Below are positions 25,868-62,822 of a stretch of 64,000 nucleotides of DNA, piece after piece (position 1 is the stretch's first letter; every line of letters begins with the position of its first letter). This DNA is from Escherichia phage I29. The position numbers were made by a program, and so were the translations under genes. Below the pieces are notes generated by a model. The model was not told the origin of the DNA. It did not search any database and saw only the letters and a list, made by a program, of their open reading frames with translations. The DNA lies in the sequence record ON286975; one strand, 5' to 3'.

Positions 25868-27415
25868 TTAGATAAAACGCTTGAACATAGAAGGTGATGA
25901 GATTGATGGAATCACACAAGGAAGTGCTACCTCCTCTTTCTCTAGGAAATTAATCGCAGAAGCTACACAGTCGGCCCAGTCGTCTTTTCTGTTAAATGTT
26001 GATCTTTCCCCGTTGAATTTTTCAAGTTCAGTCAGAAATGCTTCCAGAGTATCAGGATGGAAACTGGATTTTACAATCCTCACCATTCCTTGTTGGGCAA
26101 GATTGGCAAAAGGTGAGAACCTTGTCAGTTTAGACTTGTTGGAAGGCATTGGGTCTTCTTCAACCCTGAACCCTTCGGCAAGCAAGGATCTGGAGGAGGT
26201 TAAGAACTCACTCTTACCTGCCTGCCCTGGGTCCACAGAGAAGACGATTATGCAATCATCACCATCGAACTGCGCCTGTTTCCTGATGATCACATCTCGT
26301 TCACCAGCCTTTTTACAGAACTTGCCTTCCAGACCTGTGGAATACCTCCCGTCATCCACGTTCTCAGGACAATAATCACCGGACAGGTAATAAAAGCCGT
26401 CGCTATCTTTACTTACCTTAATACTGGCAGTAAAGTCAGGAAATTTATTACCGGAAGTTCTCTCGGTTCCTGCCTTATCCCATGCCCTGCAAGATACTGA
26501 CCCAAGAGGTACTCTATCGGCATCACGAAGGAAAGATCTTTGAAAATAGTTTGCACCCTCAGGCTTTGCAAACCAGTTACCATGGAGAAGCTGAGCTTTT
26601 TCCAGCTCTGGTAGACCTTCGAGGAAAGCAAGGTATTCTGGGTTGTCTCTCAAACAGACAGGATTATCGAATATTGTTGCGCCTATGAACGAGAATGACA
26701 ACGGTCTTGGCTTGATCTCTACGCCAAGTCCGTTAACCGTGGTGTATTTCTCTATCAACTCTTCTTTAGAGTCTCCCCAGATAAATTCACCGTCGCGTCG
26801 GATAAAATATCTTTTCTTACCGCATTTCTCCGGATCTGGATACCCTTCATCGTCCAACCACCATCTAACCAGTTTGGCAAGCATGTGTTCTGAATCGGGG
26901 TTACAGCTGATAACCATTCTTGATGGATACTTTGACTGAGATCGCAGACGAGACATCAGATAGTCTATCTGCTCCCATTCGAACTGCGTGCCCTCATCGA
27001 AGCAAACCATGGTGTACTCAAGCCCCTGATGGTTAAGCTTATCTTGTACATACTCCATATGGCAGTATTTTACAACAGCTCCCTTTTTGCTTCTATCCCA
27101 CTTACCAGTGTTCGGATCAAACCGTGGAAAAATGAACTTATGATCCTTCTCTCTGAACTTTGGCTTAATGTTTTCAGGCAGATCACTGTAAATAGCTACT
27201 GCTTTAGGCCATAGTCCACCCTCACCTTCCAACTGTGGGGTTGTTCTTCGGAACATAACCACAGAGCTGTGGGGGTCATCAATAATTTTAAGTGGCATCA
27301 ACTGCAAGAGGAACGACTTGCCAGACCCTGCGGCACCGCCGATTACCAAAATATCTGCATCGTTTTCTAGGATCATCTTCTGCTTTTCAGAACACGGTCC
27401 GTAAATCTTAGACAT
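25868..27415 (-). CDS. terminase large subunit
   Basis: 515 aa; Walker A GGAAGSGKS near N-terminus, Walker B-like VCFDEG, nuclease-type C-terminal half. Confidence 0.85.
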   Translation of the reverse strand: MSKIYGPCSEKQKMILENDADILVIGGAAGSGKSFLLQLMPLKIIDDPHSSVVMFRRTTPQLEGEGGLWPKAVAIYSDLPENIKPKFREKDHKFIFPRFDPNTGKWDRSKKGAVVKYCHMEYVQDKLNHQGLEYTMVCFDEGTQFEWEQIDYLMSRLRSQSKYPSRMVISCNPDSEHMLAKLVRWWLDDEGYPDPEKCGKKRYFIRRDGEFIWGDSKEELIEKYTTVNGLGVEIKPRPLSFSFIGATIFDNPVCLRDNPEYLAFLEGLPELEKAQLLHGNWFAKPEGANYFQRSFLRDADRVPLGSVSCRAWDKAGTERTSGNKFPDFTASIKVSKDSDGFYYLSGDYCPENVDDGRYSTGLEGKFCKKAGERDVIIRKQAQFDGDDCIIVFSVDPGQAGKSEFLTSSRSLLAEGFRVEEDPMPSNKSKLTRFSPFANLAQQGMVRIVKSSFHPDTLEAFLTELEKFNGERSTFNRKDDWADCVASAINFLEKEEVALPCVIPSISSPSMFKRFI

Positions 27416-28763: not shown

Positions 28764-28862
28764 GGTGCTAGGTGATGGAATCGAACCACCTATGTATTCA
28801 ACGACTACCTCGTCTATTTTCAGGATTAAAAATCCTCGCCCTTGCCAAAGGGCTTACCTAGC
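28764..28862 (-). ncRNA. atypical tRNA-like element (possible pseudo-tRNA or small stable RNA); anticodon not assignable
   Basis: 7/7 complementary acceptor ends GCTAGGT/ACCTAGC, D-arm GCCC-TTTGGCAA-GGGC and T-arm GGTGG-TTCGATT-CCATC, but the 46-nt middle has no canonical anticodon arm and contains a tight AGGATT-TTT-AATCCT hairpin; 3' end is ACC-T rather than CCA. Confidence 0.35.
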
Positions 28863-30429: not shown

Positions 30430-30639
30430 TCAACAGATTCCGGCCTTATCCTTCCTGTCTGCGTATTCTTTAATCGCAACCTCATCTGCATTAGTGACCA
30501 GGTCTTCAAAGTAACTCTCAAGCTCCTCGTCAATGTCAGGAGACCAGCTCTTTTTCCTGTCAGTGTGAATTGCAGACTTGTTGAACTTATTACAGTTCTT
30601 TGCTACCGGGTTGTTCATTAAGCGCTCCTCAGCGTTCAT
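30430..30639 (-). CDS. hypothetical protein
   Basis: 69-aa ORF overlapping the stop of the upstream gene. Confidence 0.3.
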   Translation of the reverse strand: MNAEERLMNNPVAKNCNKFNKSAIHTDRKKSWSPDIDEELESYFEDLVTNADEVAIKEYADRKDKAGIC

Positions 30640-31207
30640 AGTAAATCTTATTTAACATTACCTCATCCTTTGCAGAAAGGATATCAAGATATGCATCACC
30701 AAATCTTCCTGCAACAACCTCTGCATGATACATCACTTCGTTAACATCGTCAAGAGTGATAACCGGATGACCATATCTTTCTGAATATTGTCTCAGGGTG
30801 CGATGTAACGAGTCGTCATCATATGCAGACTTTTTAATATCACAAACACGACGAATAGCCTTGATGTCGAAAAAACCTGTGCGATACCACCCAAGAAAAA
30901 GGTTTCGTGCAGTGTCAACATCTACATTGATACCATCAAGAACCTTATCTACAAGATAGCTGTCATCCTTTGGACCAGCGTCCTTAGTGCGAATGTAGTT
31001 GCCATCTTTTCCAGGCGACATCTCCTTCTCATCCCCAACCTGCATGCCATCATTTGGCGGTGTTAGCCACTTATCCGGATGCTTACGATCACGAGCGTTA
31101 GAATGATTACGCTGGAAACCGGGCTTCCACTTGAAAGTTTTCTCCATCTGTTCTTCATTCTGATAACGTTTTGCAATCTTTTCACGGTCATCTTTGCGTG
31201 AACCCAT
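30629..31207 (-). CDS. hypothetical protein
   Basis: 192-aa ORF; first gene leftward of the iteron-containing intergenic region. Confidence 0.45.
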   Translation of the reverse strand: MGSRKDDREKIAKRYQNEEQMEKTFKWKPGFQRNHSNARDRKHPDKWLTPPNDGMQVGDEKEMSPGKDGNYIRTKDAGPKDDSYLVDKVLDGINVDVDTARNLFLGWYRTGFFDIKAIRRVCDIKKSAYDDDSLHRTLRQYSERYGHPVITLDDVNEVMYHAEVVAGRFGDAYLDILSAKDEVMLNKIYYER

Positions 31208-31711
31208 AGCTGCCTCCTCTTCAAGTTATAGAAAAACTAACTGTATCGCTTTGTAACGAGCTTTTCTATCAAACTGGTGCGATTGCATTACCTGGTATAG
31301 TTTATATAGCTGTGGAGCGATTTAGGGGCCTTCTTGTCAGTTTCCACACATAAACTTCATCCAAGCTCGCGCGGGAGACTCTCAACCGACTCCTTACGGC
31401 GCTGGCAAGCTTTCGTCGGTGGTCCACATCAGTGCTCGGCCTTTGGCCTGCGCTATCGCTTCGCTCCCACACATGTTAACAGACCTGTATGTATGAACTT
31501 CTGTTATTGTGTGCACCAAAGAGGCCCGGCATCTCGCCCCTCGTAGGCGAGTGCCAATGAAGGGCCGACACTGCCCATAGTAAGTAATAAATTTAAAACA
31601 TGGTACTTAGGATCTAGTATATTCTACATAAGTTAAGTATATGTACTTAGTACCATAAGTACTAGATCTTTTATTTTTTTATTATTTAGTTATTTTAGTT
31701 ATATTCTTTAT

Positions 31712-31820
31712 GTGTCCGTATCACGGACAGCTAGTGTCCGTATTACGGGCAGATGTGTCCGCGTGACGGACAGTAGTGTCCGTATCACGGACAGTTAATA
31801 GTATCCGTTCCATGGCGAAC
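31712..31820. repeat. array of four tandem ~21-bp direct repeats (iteron/operator-like), each with internal inverted repeat, plus one degenerate copy
   Basis: GTGTCCGTATCACGGACAG at 31712-31730 and 31776-31794 (identical), GTGTCCGTATTACGGGCAG at 31734-31752, GTGTCCGCGTGACGGACAG at 31755-31773, degenerate copy about 31800-31820; spacing 22/21/21 bp; each unit contains GTCCG...CGGAC. Confidence 0.8.
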
Positions 31821-31868
31821 ATAAAACATACGAATCCTTATAGTACAGATATTTAAGTTTTTACTGGT

Positions 31869-32219
31869 CTAACCAGTTGTTGACATCCGAATAACTTCTT
31901 CTGGTGGCAAAACTTTGGAAAATGTGCATCTTTTACCTCTCCCTTGTGTGGATGTTTCAACCACTCCTGCACATTCTAAAGTTTTAACGCACGCTGCTGC
32001 TTTTGTTTTCTTTATCCCAACATCTGCTGCAATTTTCCTTGTGCTTGGTGTGAAGCGTGAATTTCCTCCAAGCTTATACCAGTTGTGCAGGTAGCAGTAT
32101 ACGATCTTGTCATACAAGTCAAGAACAACAACCTCCCCAGTTGTGTCATTCAAAACTTTTGACATAGATAGTATTTCAAGGGGGACTTTAAGATATAGCA
32201 GCTTATCCCCATCTTTCAT
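31869..32219 (-). CDS. hypothetical protein, possible helix-turn-helix DNA-binding protein
   Basis: 116-aa ORF; segment STRKIAADVGIKKTKAAACVKTL has helix-turn-helix character (inference); 3' end abuts the iteron array. Confidence 0.35.
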   Translation of the reverse strand: MKDGDKLLYLKVPLEILSMSKVLNDTTGEVVVLDLYDKIVYCYLHNWYKLGGNSRFTPSTRKIAADVGIKKTKAAACVKTLECAGVVETSTQGRGKRCTFSKVLPPEEVIRMSTTG

Positions 32220-32266
32220 ATCTCCTGATTCTCCTTGTGTGGCAATTTTCTTTAAAATAGCAGGGA

Positions 32267-32821
32267 TTACTCCCTGCTGTCAATATCAAAACTCATTGCA
32301 ATACGGTATGCCTCTTCTAATGGTAAGAGTCTCCCCCACACATCCCAACCGACATCAAGCTGCCTGCCAAACAACTGTTGTGTGGTTCCGTGAGCATGAC
32401 CGAACAGTTGGACTGATCCGTGAGGCTTTCTGTTCCACTTTGCAAACTGGTAATGGCTCATACAGATCAAATTCTTGTTGTGGCGAAGCTCGTAATAATC
32501 TACAACCTCATGACCGAACTCTTTCATAATTCTGACAGTCGTCCTTGTGTCATGGTTGCCACGAACAAGAATAATATGTCCGTTCAACATATTTAGAATA
32601 TCTGGAAGTAAGTTGTTGATATTCTTATCATTAGTGCACGCAATATCTCCCAAGTGGAACACAGTGTCTGCAGGTGACACAACAGAGTTCCACTTGGCGA
32701 TGATTCCCGCATTCATACTGTCAAGATTGTGATCATACTGAGATCTGTGTTTTTGACATGAATCAAACTCCATGACCCGCTGGTGGAGAAAGTGTGTGTC
32801 GCTTGTTACAAAGTATTTCAT
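32267..32821 (-). CDS. calcineurin-like metallophosphoesterase (candidate RNA 2',3'-end phosphatase)
   Basis: ORF track 32267..32926; ATG at 32821 (MKYFVTSDTHF...) has a GAGGAA RBS. Motifs SDTHF, GDI, GNHD, GHAHG match binuclear metallophosphoesterases. Confidence 0.7.
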   Translation of the reverse strand: MKYFVTSDTHFLHQRVMEFDSCQKHRSQYDHNLDSMNAGIIAKWNSVVSPADTVFHLGDIACTNDKNINNLLPDILNMLNGHIILVRGNHDTRTTVRIMKEFGHEVVDYYELRHNKNLICMSHYQFAKWNRKPHGSVQLFGHAHGTTQQLFGRQLDVGWDVWGRLLPLEEAYRIAMSFDIDSRE

Positions 32822-60074: not shown

Positions 60075-60472
60075 AGATTGAGATTACTAAAGAAGGTAAG
60101 AAAGTGTCCGGCAACTATGCAACAGTAATTCGGGATTTAATGTTTGAAGCCACCAAGATAGGTACATCTAAAGTTGGTCAAACTGTTAGTGTGAAAAGTA
60201 ATATCGCCACAGGAGAGAAGGTATTCATTGTGGTCAAAGGGCAGGATCCTGTGGAAGGAACAGTGGGCCGAGGAGGTTACCTGTGCATTTCTGAAGAGCC
60301 TCGTATGCTAGTGGCTGACTCCGCTACTATAGGTGGGAAACGTGTGTGCGAGGCGGATGAGGTAATGATTATCCAGCCTGTTGACCCAGATGATCCAGCA
60401 ACTTGGGTGGTAGGAAATGAAATCTTCTCTTTAGAAGAGTTATCCTTCCCAGCCCCGCGCTCTGTTCAGTAA
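60071..60472 (+). CDS. hypothetical protein
   Basis: 133-aa ORF, ATGA overlap with upstream ORF. Confidence 0.4.
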   Translation: MKIEITKEGKKVSGNYATVIRDLMFEATKIGTSKVGQTVSVKSNIATGEKVFIVVKGQDPVEGTVGRGGYLCISEEPRMLVADSATIGGKRVCEADEVMIIQPVDPDDPATWVVGNEIFSLEELSFPAPRSVQ

Positions 60473-60511
60473 TAATTTATCTTACCAGGGACGGTAGAAG
60501 CAGGAGGTAGC

Positions 60512-60745
60512 ATGAAAGTTAAATTTCTTACAGATTTAGGGTACCCTTCCTTGGTTGACTGTGTTGGTAAAATTGTGGAAGCAAAACGGCTATCTGCAAA
60601 CGAGAATGTTGTCCTGGTTAAAGGGAAGGATTTACTAGCTGCAGGTGCAGAGTCTGGCAGGATCTCTCCTGATTATATGTATTACCTATCTTTAAGTAAT
60701 CTGCCAGAGCGAGGCGGTAAAGGCCTTGAAGTTGTGGAGGAGTGA
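60512..60745 (+). CDS. hypothetical protein
   Basis: 77-aa ORF. Confidence 0.35.
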   Translation: MKVKFLTDLGYPSLVDCVGKIVEAKRLSANENVVLVKGKDLLAAGAESGRISPDYMYYLSLSNLPERGGKGLEVVEE

Positions 60746-61275
60746 CAGGTATGCTTCTGATTAACTGGGAAGACCTCTATGGGGACAAAGACCCTGTTGC
60801 GTTTGTTGATCGTAGGTGGAGATACACTGAAGAACAACTGGCGGCAAAAAATTTAACTGCAAAACGCAGAAAGATCATCCAGTGCAAGTACAAATACGCA
60901 CAGTTTGCTGCAAAAGTGTCTCCACAAATCGAGAGCTTTGTGCTTAAATTGTATGACGAGTACCTCAAATTCAAATTGGATTTTGTACAGGTGTACCGTG
61001 CACAGGTACGACCAGATACCAACATATGTAGATGGAAGGTTGTTTGTGACGGTAAAGATTTGCCGCTCAGCTTGACAATTGAGTGGCGTTATGGGTATCA
61101 TGAGTGTGGTCTGTATGATATTTGGGATGTCATTGTAGATCCTGCTAAGCATCTGAACACAGAGGAGCTGGAATATATCAATAAGGTTATTCTCGATATG
61201 TTTTTCAGCTACACCCATGAAAACTCTGAGAAAGAACGGGATAATTTTCTTGACACCCTCAGCTGCCATTTGTAG
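60742..61275 (+). CDS. hypothetical protein
   Basis: 177-aa ORF. Confidence 0.4.
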   Translation: MTGMLLINWEDLYGDKDPVAFVDRRWRYTEEQLAAKNLTAKRRKIIQCKYKYAQFAAKVSPQIESFVLKLYDEYLKFKLDFVQVYRAQVRPDTNICRWKVVCDGKDLPLSLTIEWRYGYHECGLYDIWDVIVDPAKHLNTEELEYINKVILDMFFSYTHENSEKERDNFLDTLSCHL

Positions 61276-61305
61276 TATACAATTTAACCTACAAAGGGAG
61301 GACCA

Positions 61306-61542
61306 ATGAGTATAAATGTTGTGCTAATAGGTTACCTGGTAATGTCCGTTATAACAGCGGTATTCTTGACAGGTGTATGCATCGTGTCCAGACGAAGGGT
61401 GAAGTTTGATGATTTTATCACCATCATCACTGCTGCACCTTTTTGGCCTGTTGTTATCTTCATCGTGATAATGTGCCTGGTTGATTACTACAAGAATATC
61501 CGTAAGGAGAAAAAGGAGGGTAGGGATGGAGACCGCACCTAA
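61306..61542 (+). CDS. small membrane protein with two predicted TM segments (holin-like topology)
   Basis: 78 aa; two hydrophobic stretches (VLIGYLVMSVITAVFLTGVCIV and ITAAPFWPVVIFIVIMCLV) and a charged C-terminus. Confidence 0.4.
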   Translation: MSINVVLIGYLVMSVITAVFLTGVCIVSRRRVKFDDFITIITAAPFWPVVIFIVIMCLVDYYKNIRKEKKEGRDGDRT

Positions 61543-61678
61543 AACTGTTTATACTGTTCTTAAAGAGATTGCGTTCTACGCAGATCTTAGTCAGGCACCT
61601 TTATGGGAAAAGAACATGTATTTAAAATGGTGCGTTAATTTAGGGAGACCTTCCAGTGTTTCAAGCCATGTTTATTGA
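61526..61678 (+). CDS. hypothetical small protein
   Basis: ORF track 61481..61678; ATG at 61526 (METAPKTVYTV...) has a GGAGGG RBS. Confidence 0.3.
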   Translation: METAPKTVYTVLKEIAFYADLSQAPLWEKNMYLKWCVNLGRPSSVSSHVY

Positions 61679-61743
61679 GATGCTATCTGGGGTATTGTTA
61701 CTGGTAGCCATCTTAGGTGGTGCAGTTCTGATGTATAACTATC

Positions 61744-61947
61744 TTGAAAAAGGAGACAGTAATGGCAAAAAATAAATCTTTAGAGCAGGCTGAAAACCTT
61801 CTCCACGAGCTGGTAAAGGAGTGGAAAGTCGAATACTCAGATTTTAATGCACGAGAGGGTGAAGATTATTGGCCTACGGAGCGCTCCGAGGGTGAATGGT
61901 ATCAAGATTTTATAGAGTGGTTATATCAGACGTGCGATGAGGGGTGA
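61744..61947 (+). CDS. hypothetical protein
   Basis: 67-aa ORF. Confidence 0.35.
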   Translation: MKKETVMAKNKSLEQAENLLHELVKEWKVEYSDFNAREGEDYWPTERSEGEWYQDFIEWLYQTCDEG

Positions 61948-62414
61948 CGATGTTTGTTAAATATGTAAAAACGTGCCTCAACAGCCTTGGCAGAGAGCAT
62001 TGGTACACCTTGCTTGAAAAAGGAGAAATTTTAACAAAATCTGGAAAGATAACTTTGATACCTCTTGATAGTAAAGGTAAAGACCCGTCACGACTTGTTA
62101 TAGATGATTACGTTACAGGTGTGACGTTCGAGGTCTCTGTGGAGAGGTTAATACGCAGAGCTGGCGGCCCTTATGACCGAAGAGAGTATGTTTTCGATTC
62201 CGTTACAGAGATGGGGGAGCATCCGTCTTTAATGTTCAGGATGGTAATCAGAGATATGAGGTCATCTATAGATAGGATCGTAAAGGACATTAAGGAACCT
62301 TTTAGAGTAAAAGTTAAGAAGTTTTTCGATTCTAAGATTAACATACTCGCCGTTGCACTAGGTGTAGTTCAACTTCTGTTAATTTTGCACTATTTTGAAC
62401 TGTTGTTTAAGTAG
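61944..62414 (+). CDS. hypothetical protein
   Basis: 156-aa ORF; hydrophobic C-terminus. Confidence 0.4.
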   Translation: MTMFVKYVKTCLNSLGREHWYTLLEKGEILTKSGKITLIPLDSKGKDPSRLVIDDYVTGVTFEVSVERLIRRAGGPYDRREYVFDSVTEMGEHPSLMFRMVIRDMRSSIDRIVKDIKEPFRVKVKKFFDSKINILAVALGVVQLLLILHYFELLFK

Positions 62415-62474
62415 TGTGCAACAAGGCACAAAGGATGTGCCATAATTAAACAAATTAAGAAAGAGGTAGAGAGA

Positions 62475-62822
62475 ATGTCAAAGATTAAATCGATATTAAT
62501 GTGGGTAGCTGTTGTGGCTTTTGTAGGATACTGGACTTGGGAAACTGAATTAAAAGATATCGGATATACCAGTCTTGAGAGCAAGGCGTGCATTGGCATA
62601 ACCGATGCATTCAGGCAAAATGCTATGGATCACGAATGTGTCGATGCAGATATAGATGAGAAACTGTCTAAGGACAAGGATTTTTACCATGGTCATGCCT
62701 TGCTTGATAGTGGTGACACTGTAGAATTCTGGTCGTGGTTCCGTGAAGATGGAACAATAAAGACAGCAGTAAAGATTTCCAACAAAGAGTTAATGCTGTT
62801 GCAGCAGAAGGAGGTGCAATGA
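62475..62822 (+). CDS. hypothetical protein with N-terminal TM/signal segment
   Basis: 115 aa; N-terminal SILMWVAVVAFVGYWTW. Confidence 0.4.
   Translation: MSKIKSILMWVAVVAFVGYWTWETELKDIGYTSLESKACIGITDAFRQNAMDHECVDADIDEKLSKDKDFYHGHALLDSGDTVEFWSWFREDGTIKTAVKISNKELMLLQQKEVQ

Follow-up and report, generated by a model that had tools for sequence, protein, structure and literature searches.

What is a tandem array of palindromes doing in a non-coding gap of a virulent phage genome: does it start replication, or does it control transcription? The array in question belongs to Escherichia phage I29 (sequence record ON286975), of which we analysed a stretch of 64,000 nucleotides (the window). The region is 99.7% identical to that of Escherichia phage rV5_ev146, which makes I29 an rV5-like phage (Vequintavirus): a virulent 137-kb myovirus with its own T7-like (gp4-like) primase-helicase and a T7-like family-A polymerase. 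The gap covers positions 31208-31868 and is bounded by the stop codon of a gene for a 116-amino-acid (aa) protein and the start of a gene for a 192-aa protein, both on the minus strand. A preliminary description of the sequence had read the locus as either a replication origin or a multi-operator control region. That proposal is supported; the comparative evidence favours an origin, and an operator remains the main rival.

The authors of the rV5 genome paper used skew analysis to look for an origin, without success (PMC3606486), and we found no paper that links Vequintavirus to iterons or to an origin. A literature search for TGTCCG/CGGACA iterons returned irrelevant matches only. Nor did we find the module formed by the array and the proposed origin described for these phages; the plan of the lambda origin (ori-lambda), with which we compare it below, is itself known.

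A conserved array of four palindromic units

The array consists of four units at positions 31712-31730, 31734-31752, 31755-31773 and 31776-31794, with start-to-start distances of 22, 21 and 21 bp. Units 1 and 4 share one sequence, from which unit 2 departs at two bases and unit 3 at three, and every unit is a 6-N5-6 palindrome, TGTCCG-N5-CGGACA. The earlier picture of two exact and two variant iteron-like repeats at 21-22 bp spacing, each with an inverted repeat and all within a non-coding gap of about 660 bp, was therefore accurate; the gap measures 661 bp, and no open reading frame (ORF) of 40 aa or more covers 31547-31868. A degenerate fifth copy had also been suggested (at about 31798-31820). 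In a hand alignment about 12 of its 19 positions agree with the unit, and it falls in the least conserved stretch of the gap, and because of this poor match and the lowest conservation among relatives we do not count it as a unit.

Tandem Repeats Finder (TRF) gave the array a score of 110 at period 21. Searching with the 19-mer at up to three mismatches yielded four matches, where 0.00 were expected from 100 shuffles. A degenerate pattern of the palindrome found no good site in the 64 kb beyond the four units, and the palindrome was not found outside the array in the 132-kb genome of rV5_ev146. No tandem repeat of that genome scores higher than the array (110-126; the next reaches 52).

Over 56 units from 13 further rV5-like sequences the arms are invariant except for a fixed variant of unit 2, CGGGCA, and all remaining differences between units of the relatives fall in the central bases. 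Copy number changes by whole units: two in phage navn, three in a gut-metagenome contig, four in most relatives and six in O157 typing phage 14. The spacing is 21-22 bp in every one of them. The array is real and is under selection, and the pattern of fixed arms around a variable centre fits recognition by a protein.

The repeats and the adjacent protein change together

The 116-aa protein, which has a helix-turn-helix (HTH) motif, had been named as the candidate binder. Two homologues, both recovered by profile search, are informative on this point. The first (P0013, on contig L016) is 70% identical to the 116-aa protein; the spacer after its stop codon has diverged, yet the unit cTGTCCGTGTGACGGACAG and the tail of the preceding unit are kept. 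The second belongs to a 137-kb uncultured relative (L043) that has kept the structured element of the gap (described below), the phosphoesterase and, at 82% identity, the 192-aa protein. Its syntenic protein is a 143-aa homologue of 28% identity (pairwise E = 7e-7); next to the 3' end of the gene for it lie repeats of another palindrome, TCTGATRCA-N4-TGTATCAGA. Because the similar protein keeps the units and the diverged protein is accompanied by other repeats, protein and repeats appear to form a cognate specificity module. These comparisons bear out the choice of binder and indicate that the adjacent 116-aa winged-helix protein very probably binds the array.

An AT-rich segment adjoins the array

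The array adjoins a segment that is a candidate DNA-unwinding element. Positions 31585-31704 are 80.8% AT and are the AT-richest 120 bp of the 64 kb (the next reach 73.3%; mean 56.6%, standard deviation 4.7), about five standard deviations above the mean; the counterpart is the AT-richest segment of the whole rV5_ev146 genome. The strongly AT-rich character that had been ascribed to this segment is thus clear. Short palindromes had also been noted in it; GTACTTAG is present twice, and ATGGTACTWAG forms an inverted pair (31600-31610 and 31646-31656) that is unique in the window. In all, two inverted motif pairs lie within the segment, and short A-rich direct repeats, TAACTAAATAA, occupy 31671-31702 (TRF period 11). 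The A-rich strand is the minus strand, that is, the sense strand of the 116-aa gene. Among nine genomes the segment is almost invariant, with few single-base changes and small differences in the length of T-runs.

Comparison with ori-lambda and with arrays inside O-like genes

In the lambda sequence four TCCCTC-N5-GAGGGA iterons, 20, 24 and 23 bp apart, begin 348 nt into the O gene, and an A-rich tract comes next. Read along its minus strand, the window offers a 351-nt gene, 75 nt, four 6-N5-6 units (21, 21 and 22 bp apart) and an A-rich tract with A-rich direct repeats. Both systems have four direct repeats with 6-N5-6 palindromes, in units of 18-19 bp spaced by 20-24 bp. In both, the A-rich or AT-rich tract directly follows the last repeat, away from the coding sequence of the DNA-binding domain; repeats and tract lie 3' of about 110-116 aa of such coding sequence, and the A-rich strand is the sense strand. 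Specificity modules are exchanged between relatives in both. The AT tract of the rV5-like phages is about three times as long as that of lambda, and these phages have their own T7-like primase-helicase and polymerase. At the level of the protein, the 116-aa sequence, unlike lambda O, gave no match to Pfam Phage_rep_O at E<=1, and BLASTP of it against lambda O found none; its only links in this direction are to PHROG families, those for replication initiation and those neighbouring 'O-like'. We also considered whether an O gene had been split, with an O-like C-terminal part surviving as a remnant in the gap or in the 192-aa gene. This was rejected, as no similarity was found beyond the translated repeats.

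A scan of IMG/VR viral contigs for two adjacent TGTCCG-N5-CGGACA units picked up 18 loci, all outside the rV5-like phages; 17 of these carry 3-7 units. Most of the arrays lie inside ORFs of 284-387 aa, directly after an N-terminal winged helix, and an A-rich patch follows the array in at least five loci (L020, L028, L032, L037 and L035). The array-bearing ORFs match PHROG families labelled 'replication initiation protein' or 'replication initiation O-like', including families 270, 428 and 8102. Profile-profile comparison (hhalign) of the N-terminal domains with the rV5 family gave 92% probability over 37 columns of the HTH core. A cyanophage initiator homologous to one array-bearing ORF has the identical plan with different repeats. 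The context of another locus (L022), where 133-aa genes that combine HTH_36 with the array are followed by unknown ORFs and a terminase, is uninformative. These in-gene O-like arrays of uncultured GC-rich phages (L020-L037) thus resemble that of the rV5-like phages in their arms, in their number of units, in a spacing of 20-25 bp, in their place after a winged-helix domain and in the three PHROG initiator families, which the rV5 protein also matches. They differ in that the proteins are mostly of 230-387 aa with the array translated in frame, and no close sequence relation to the 116-aa protein is detectable outside the HTH core.

Family and predicted fold of the 116-aa protein

The 116-aa protein matches PHROG 12838, 'replication initiation protein', with E = 5e-80, and the initiator families 8102, 428 and 270 more weakly. 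It is almost an orphan, with eight matches among 1.84 billion representatives. The precomputed Pfam assignment of a 99%-identical cluster representative includes HTH_36 (PF13730), and two remote relatives (P0009 and P0011) exceed the Pfam cut-offs when tested for HTH_36 and DUF6945 (PF22182). HTH_36 is known from plasmid Rep proteins (PMC3832669), and Stx phages have it in genes that lie in their variable replication-gene region (PMC8951638). In most GenBank records the product is labelled 'putative transcriptional regulator'; the RefSeq re-annotation calls it 'replication initiation protein'.

Longer relatives (182-217 aa) adjoin divergent intergenic regions in uncultured phages with genes for a T7-like polymerase and a DnaB-primase. 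Several homologues (P0009, P0011, P0014, P0015, P0017, P0019 and the product of L043:2339-2770, minus strand) end in an acidic tail with a terminal Phe (..DEAPF, ..DAPF, ..GEPF, ..EEPF or ..ESGEDF). We take these tails to resemble the C-terminal tails of single-stranded DNA-binding protein (SSB), T7 gp2.5 and gp4, which dock on polymerase or on partner proteins.

An AlphaFold2 (AF2) model built on an alignment of 16 sequences predicts a winged helix with a mean confidence (pLDDT) of 79.9; a model from the single sequence, with a pLDDT of 39, was discarded. Foldseek placed an uncharacterised N-terminal domain from Vibrio (4ro3) first among structures in the PDB. Next came the iteron-binding N-terminal domains of staphylococcal RepA_N proteins, 4pql, 4pt7 and 5kbj, the last of them with DNA (TM score 0.54-0.56, E = 1e-3 to 7e-3, root-mean-square deviation 2.3-2.6 over 82 columns). 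For the predicted model, the nearest solved folds of known function are thus those of RepA_N plasmid initiators. These initiators (pSK41 and pTZ2162 RepA) bind cis-encoded tandem iterons through an N-terminal winged helix, and their sequences are weakly similar to the 116-aa protein (E about 0.8). They differ from it in being full-length Rep proteins with a second domain, and the similarity is modest.

A proposed origin and the alternatives

We propose that the array and the AT-rich segment form the replication origin, or one origin, of rV5-like phages, laid out on the lambda-type plan with a minimal initiator. We consider this reading reasonably probable, and we favour it because of the ori-lambda layout, the in-gene O-like arrays, the PHROG families, the RepA_N folds and the adjoining AT-richest segment. 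The 116-aa protein would be made early from its own sigma-70-type promoter, for which the rV5 RefSeq record annotates P76 at the equivalent position, and its dimers would bind the four units. As 21-22 bp is about two helical turns, all sites would lie on one face of the helix. The protein-DNA complex would then strain the adjoining segment of about 130 bp until it melts, and the gp4-like primase-helicase and T7-like polymerase would start synthesis there. Read-through from the initiator gene's promoter would cross both the array and the AT-rich segment and may assist, as transcription does at ori-lambda. In this scheme binding, melting, helicase loading and origin activity are steps that we infer.

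Two other types of origin offer partial parallels. The primary origin of T7 shares with the proposed one a gp4-like primase-helicase, a family-A polymerase and an AT-rich region downstream of a promoter. The T7 origin uses promoters of the phage's own RNA polymerase and has neither iterons nor an initiator protein, and rV5-like phages do not encode a T7-type RNA polymerase. Gram-negative iteron plasmids usually carry DnaA boxes. The gap has no exact DnaA box and one with a single mismatch against 1.9 expected, and neither integration host factor (IHF) sites nor GATC are enriched in it; the DnaA boxes or IHF sites beside the iterons that would mark it as plasmid-like were thus not found.

Several observations weigh against an origin. 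The array and AT tract are non-coding and begin 75 bp past the stop codon, whereas those of lambda lie within a gene. The C-terminal domain of lambda O recruits P-DnaB; the 116-aa protein is a winged helix only and has no such domain, nor does it have the acidic Phe-ended tail of its longer relatives. Its own Pfam matches fall just below threshold (27.4 bits against a cut-off of 28 for DUF6945, 24.5 against 25 for HTH_36), generic repressor families match it as well, and in Foldseek generic repressors and transcription factors follow close behind RepA_N at a modest TM score (about 0.55). Near remote homologues from uncultured phages (L017 and L018) we found weak repeated motifs only and no clear array. 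The cumulative GC skew has its minimum at the divergent strand switch, 1.6-2 kb off; we regard skew as uninformative here because this minimum follows the direction of genes and transcription, as the rV5 paper likewise found (PMC3606486). We looked for the same module in other Vequintavirinae (Proteus phage Mydo and phAPEC8-like phages) and rejected its presence there, as synteny differs and no comparable array was found; these related phages must therefore start replication in another way. Finally, TGTCCG-N5-CGGACA also occurs in two or three tandem copies at the 3' end of sigma-54 activator genes on contigs of bacterial metagenome-assembled genomes (L141:1860-1896 and L142:1361-1414), so the palindrome alone is no mark of an origin. 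Like the phage sites, these are spaced by about 20 bp and lie beside the regulator's gene. They differ in belonging to AAA+ activators of 560-880 aa with a Fis-type HTH on bacterial chromosomes, with no AT-rich tract after the sites. They are probably binding sites of the activators, and unrelated HTH proteins appear to make use of a single palindrome.

Such transcriptional use of a tandem palindrome lends substance to the main rival, a regulatory array in which the 116-aa protein would be a transcription factor and the sites would act as multiple operators, a roadblock or an enhancer-like element, controlling read-through from the early promoter into downstream genes or expression of the structured element. 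The CodY, LexA, TrmB and MarR-like winged-helix repressor families, which match protein and model, would agree with this role, as would the lack of an initiator C-terminal domain and a promoter that PhagePromoter predicts inside the AT-rich segment in one record. A simple operator role is less likely, however, because on neither strand does a sigma-70-like promoter overlap the array or lie next to it, and no array-type site is present at the promoter of the 116-aa gene itself. Late-promoter motifs of the rV5 and T4 types are likewise not enriched in the gap. An operator also leaves unexplained why the array lies next to the AT-richest segment, and why domain, repeats and A-tract follow one another in the order seen at ori-lambda and in the O-like arrays. 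We judge it unlikely.

The repeats might instead act as RNA: in the mRNA of the 116-aa gene they would form a row of hairpins within the 3' untranslated region (elements like repetitive extragenic palindromes, an mRNA stabiliser or a leaky terminator). They do lie on the transcribed strand, 75 nt past the stop codon, both strands of the array fold strongly (z about -7), and further downstream on the minus strand a GC hairpin is followed by CUCUUU. Strong folding is automatic here, because the repeats are palindromic. A hairpin needs complementarity and not a fixed sequence, whereas the arms are fixed and the centre varies; unrelated phages have these arms too, in arrays that are translated within a protein; copy number ranges from 2 to 6, no T-run terminator was found, and in the uncultured relative L043 the repeats were exchanged along with the protein. 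This makes a role in RNA very improbable. Less probable still is a different DNA site bound by the 116-aa protein, such as a pac recognition, partition-like or site-specific recombination site. The genome is circularly permuted, that is, packaged by the headful mechanism (PMC3606486), and the large terminase gene is about 4.3 kb from the array. Repeated sites are, as is generally known, typical of such functions. The 116-aa protein matched no terminase small-subunit, ParB or recombinase family in Pfam or PHROGs, no recombinase gene is adjacent, and the evidence from family and layout favours initiators, which leaves this alternative with very little probability.

A GC-rich structured element in the gap

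On the far side of the AT-rich segment the gap holds a conserved GC-rich element. At about 85% identity it recurs, unannotated, in 13-15-kb phage-like plasmids of E. coli (NZ_CP020521.1, CP035869, CP148565 and p3RM10740), which carry capsid, baseplate and tape-measure genes. Its structure is evident only through comparison with these plasmid homologues. Between the phage and plasmid clades, stem P1 shows compensatory changes at three of six pairs, with 96.7% of cells paired and one pair (20-55) broken in 2 of 10 sequences; the 3' hairpin shows them at 2 of 15 pairs, with no pair broken. The hairpin modules end in CCCACACA. Taking the whole GC-rich region as a single folded RNA was rejected, since z was only -1.3 and -1.9, and so was a conserved plus-strand promoter for the element, since relatives do not keep the TGGTATAGT match at 31293-31301. 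Rfam found no match for the plasmid copy; in the window the tRNAs alone reach gathering thresholds, and within the gap no hit below threshold exceeds 22 bits, where the gathering score is 100.

In the plasmids the element is again followed by iteron-like arrays, which differ between plasmids, and the accompanying HTH protein weakly matches O-like PHROGs. The element thus stands beside lineage-specific iteron arrays in three types of replicon: the rV5-like phages, the L043 relative and the phage-like plasmids. It might act as an RNA, either primer or regulator, or as a single-stranded signal at which the phage primase-helicase would prime. We suggest tentatively, and with more doubt than confidence, that the whole gap is a composite origin of a new type, with a DNA-binding-domain-only initiator, extragenic iterons, an unwinding element and a coupled, hitherto uncatalogued structured element of about 250 nt with swappable iteron sets.

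One further 'plasmid' record, L041 (NZ_CP043822.1, 39.6 kb), repeats a unit of about 13.5 kb three times head to tail; the unit has genes for capsid, baseplate and tape measure, and no replicon type is assigned to it. Either the assembly produced a concatemer, or the record is a genuine multimer of a phage-like replicon of very small size.

Genomic setting

About 118 Vequintavirus (rV5-like) records match the region at 90% identity or more. The gene order is constant: tRNA cluster, small ORFs, 192-aa gene, gap, 116-aa gene, phosphoesterase and a divergent strand switch. Some GenBank records tag the array automatically as 'repeat_region', with no function stated there. The features of the locus are collected in the table.

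Table. Features of the gap and its borders in the I29 window
Feature	Position	Strand	Remarks
192-aa gene (PHROG 12226)	30629..31207	-	bounds the gap downstream; co-conserved with the gap
Conserved structured non-coding element	31322..31575	+ (weak preference)	55-58% GC
Stem P1 of the structured element	31385-31390 with 31415-31420		paired segments
3' hairpin of the structured element	31523-31566		
AT-rich segment, candidate DNA-unwinding element	31578..31711		22% GC in 100-bp windows
Four 19-bp palindromic units, candidate iterons (GTGTCCG-N5-CGGACAG)	31712..31794		21-22 bp spacing
Spacer, 116-aa stop codon to array	31798..31868		most variable part of the gap (9-genome alignment); also diverged in contig L016
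116-aa winged-helix protein gene (rV5 gp075/ORF79 type), candidate iteron-binding initiator	31869..32219	-	without C-terminal domain
Sigma-70-like promoter upstream of the 116-aa gene	32254..32283	-	TTGACA-18-TATTTT with TG; 10/12 matches

Some database entries for this region carry unexpected names. Eighteen GenBank 'Campylobacter phage' records (MG0656xx) match 31200-32300, those listed at 93.9-99.2% identity, and the PLSDB 'plasmid' CP057073.1 (137.6 kb) is an rV5-like phage genome; all of these are probably mislabelled or misfiled.

Elsewhere in the window, the seven-tRNA cluster includes a tRNA-like gene of 99 nt (28764-28862, minus strand) to which ARAGORN assigns an anticodon of four bases (atcc). 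It scores 35.5 bits with the Rfam tRNA model, and its counterparts in relatives are annotated tRNA-OTHER or tRNA-Lys. In rV5_ev146 the large terminase (60234-62664) is annotated as a two-piece join; an insertion of about 880 bp with an endonuclease VII-like ORF separates the pieces. The terminase ORF of the window (25868-27415, minus strand; 515 aa) is unbroken, and for this reason it looks, from annotation and coordinates, like the insertion-free allele.

Outside the window, the region of rV5_ev146 at 105.4-108.7 kb is nearly gene-free over about 3 kb at a convergent end of transcription and has AT-rich patches (76% AT) and no tandem repeats. It is probably the 'non-coding' box on the map of the rV5 paper (PMC3606486), and it could carry another replication or packaging signal.

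Implications for rV5-like phages

Phages of this group are among the most often isolated phages of E. coli and are widely proposed for biocontrol and therapy. The place where their replication starts has so far been unmapped, and the 116-aa putative initiator, the four candidate iterons and the candidate unwinding element now provide a specific proposal for it. If true, the proposal would give an engineering handle, in the form of origin-bearing shuttle constructs and replication-defective derivatives. It would also explain the natural copy-number variants with two to six units, and would mean that a lambda-type plan is workable with a protein that is a DNA-binding domain only, alongside a T7-like replisome. 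The structured element, which occurs in these phages and in small phage-like plasmids alike, is a candidate for a new class of elements associated with origins.

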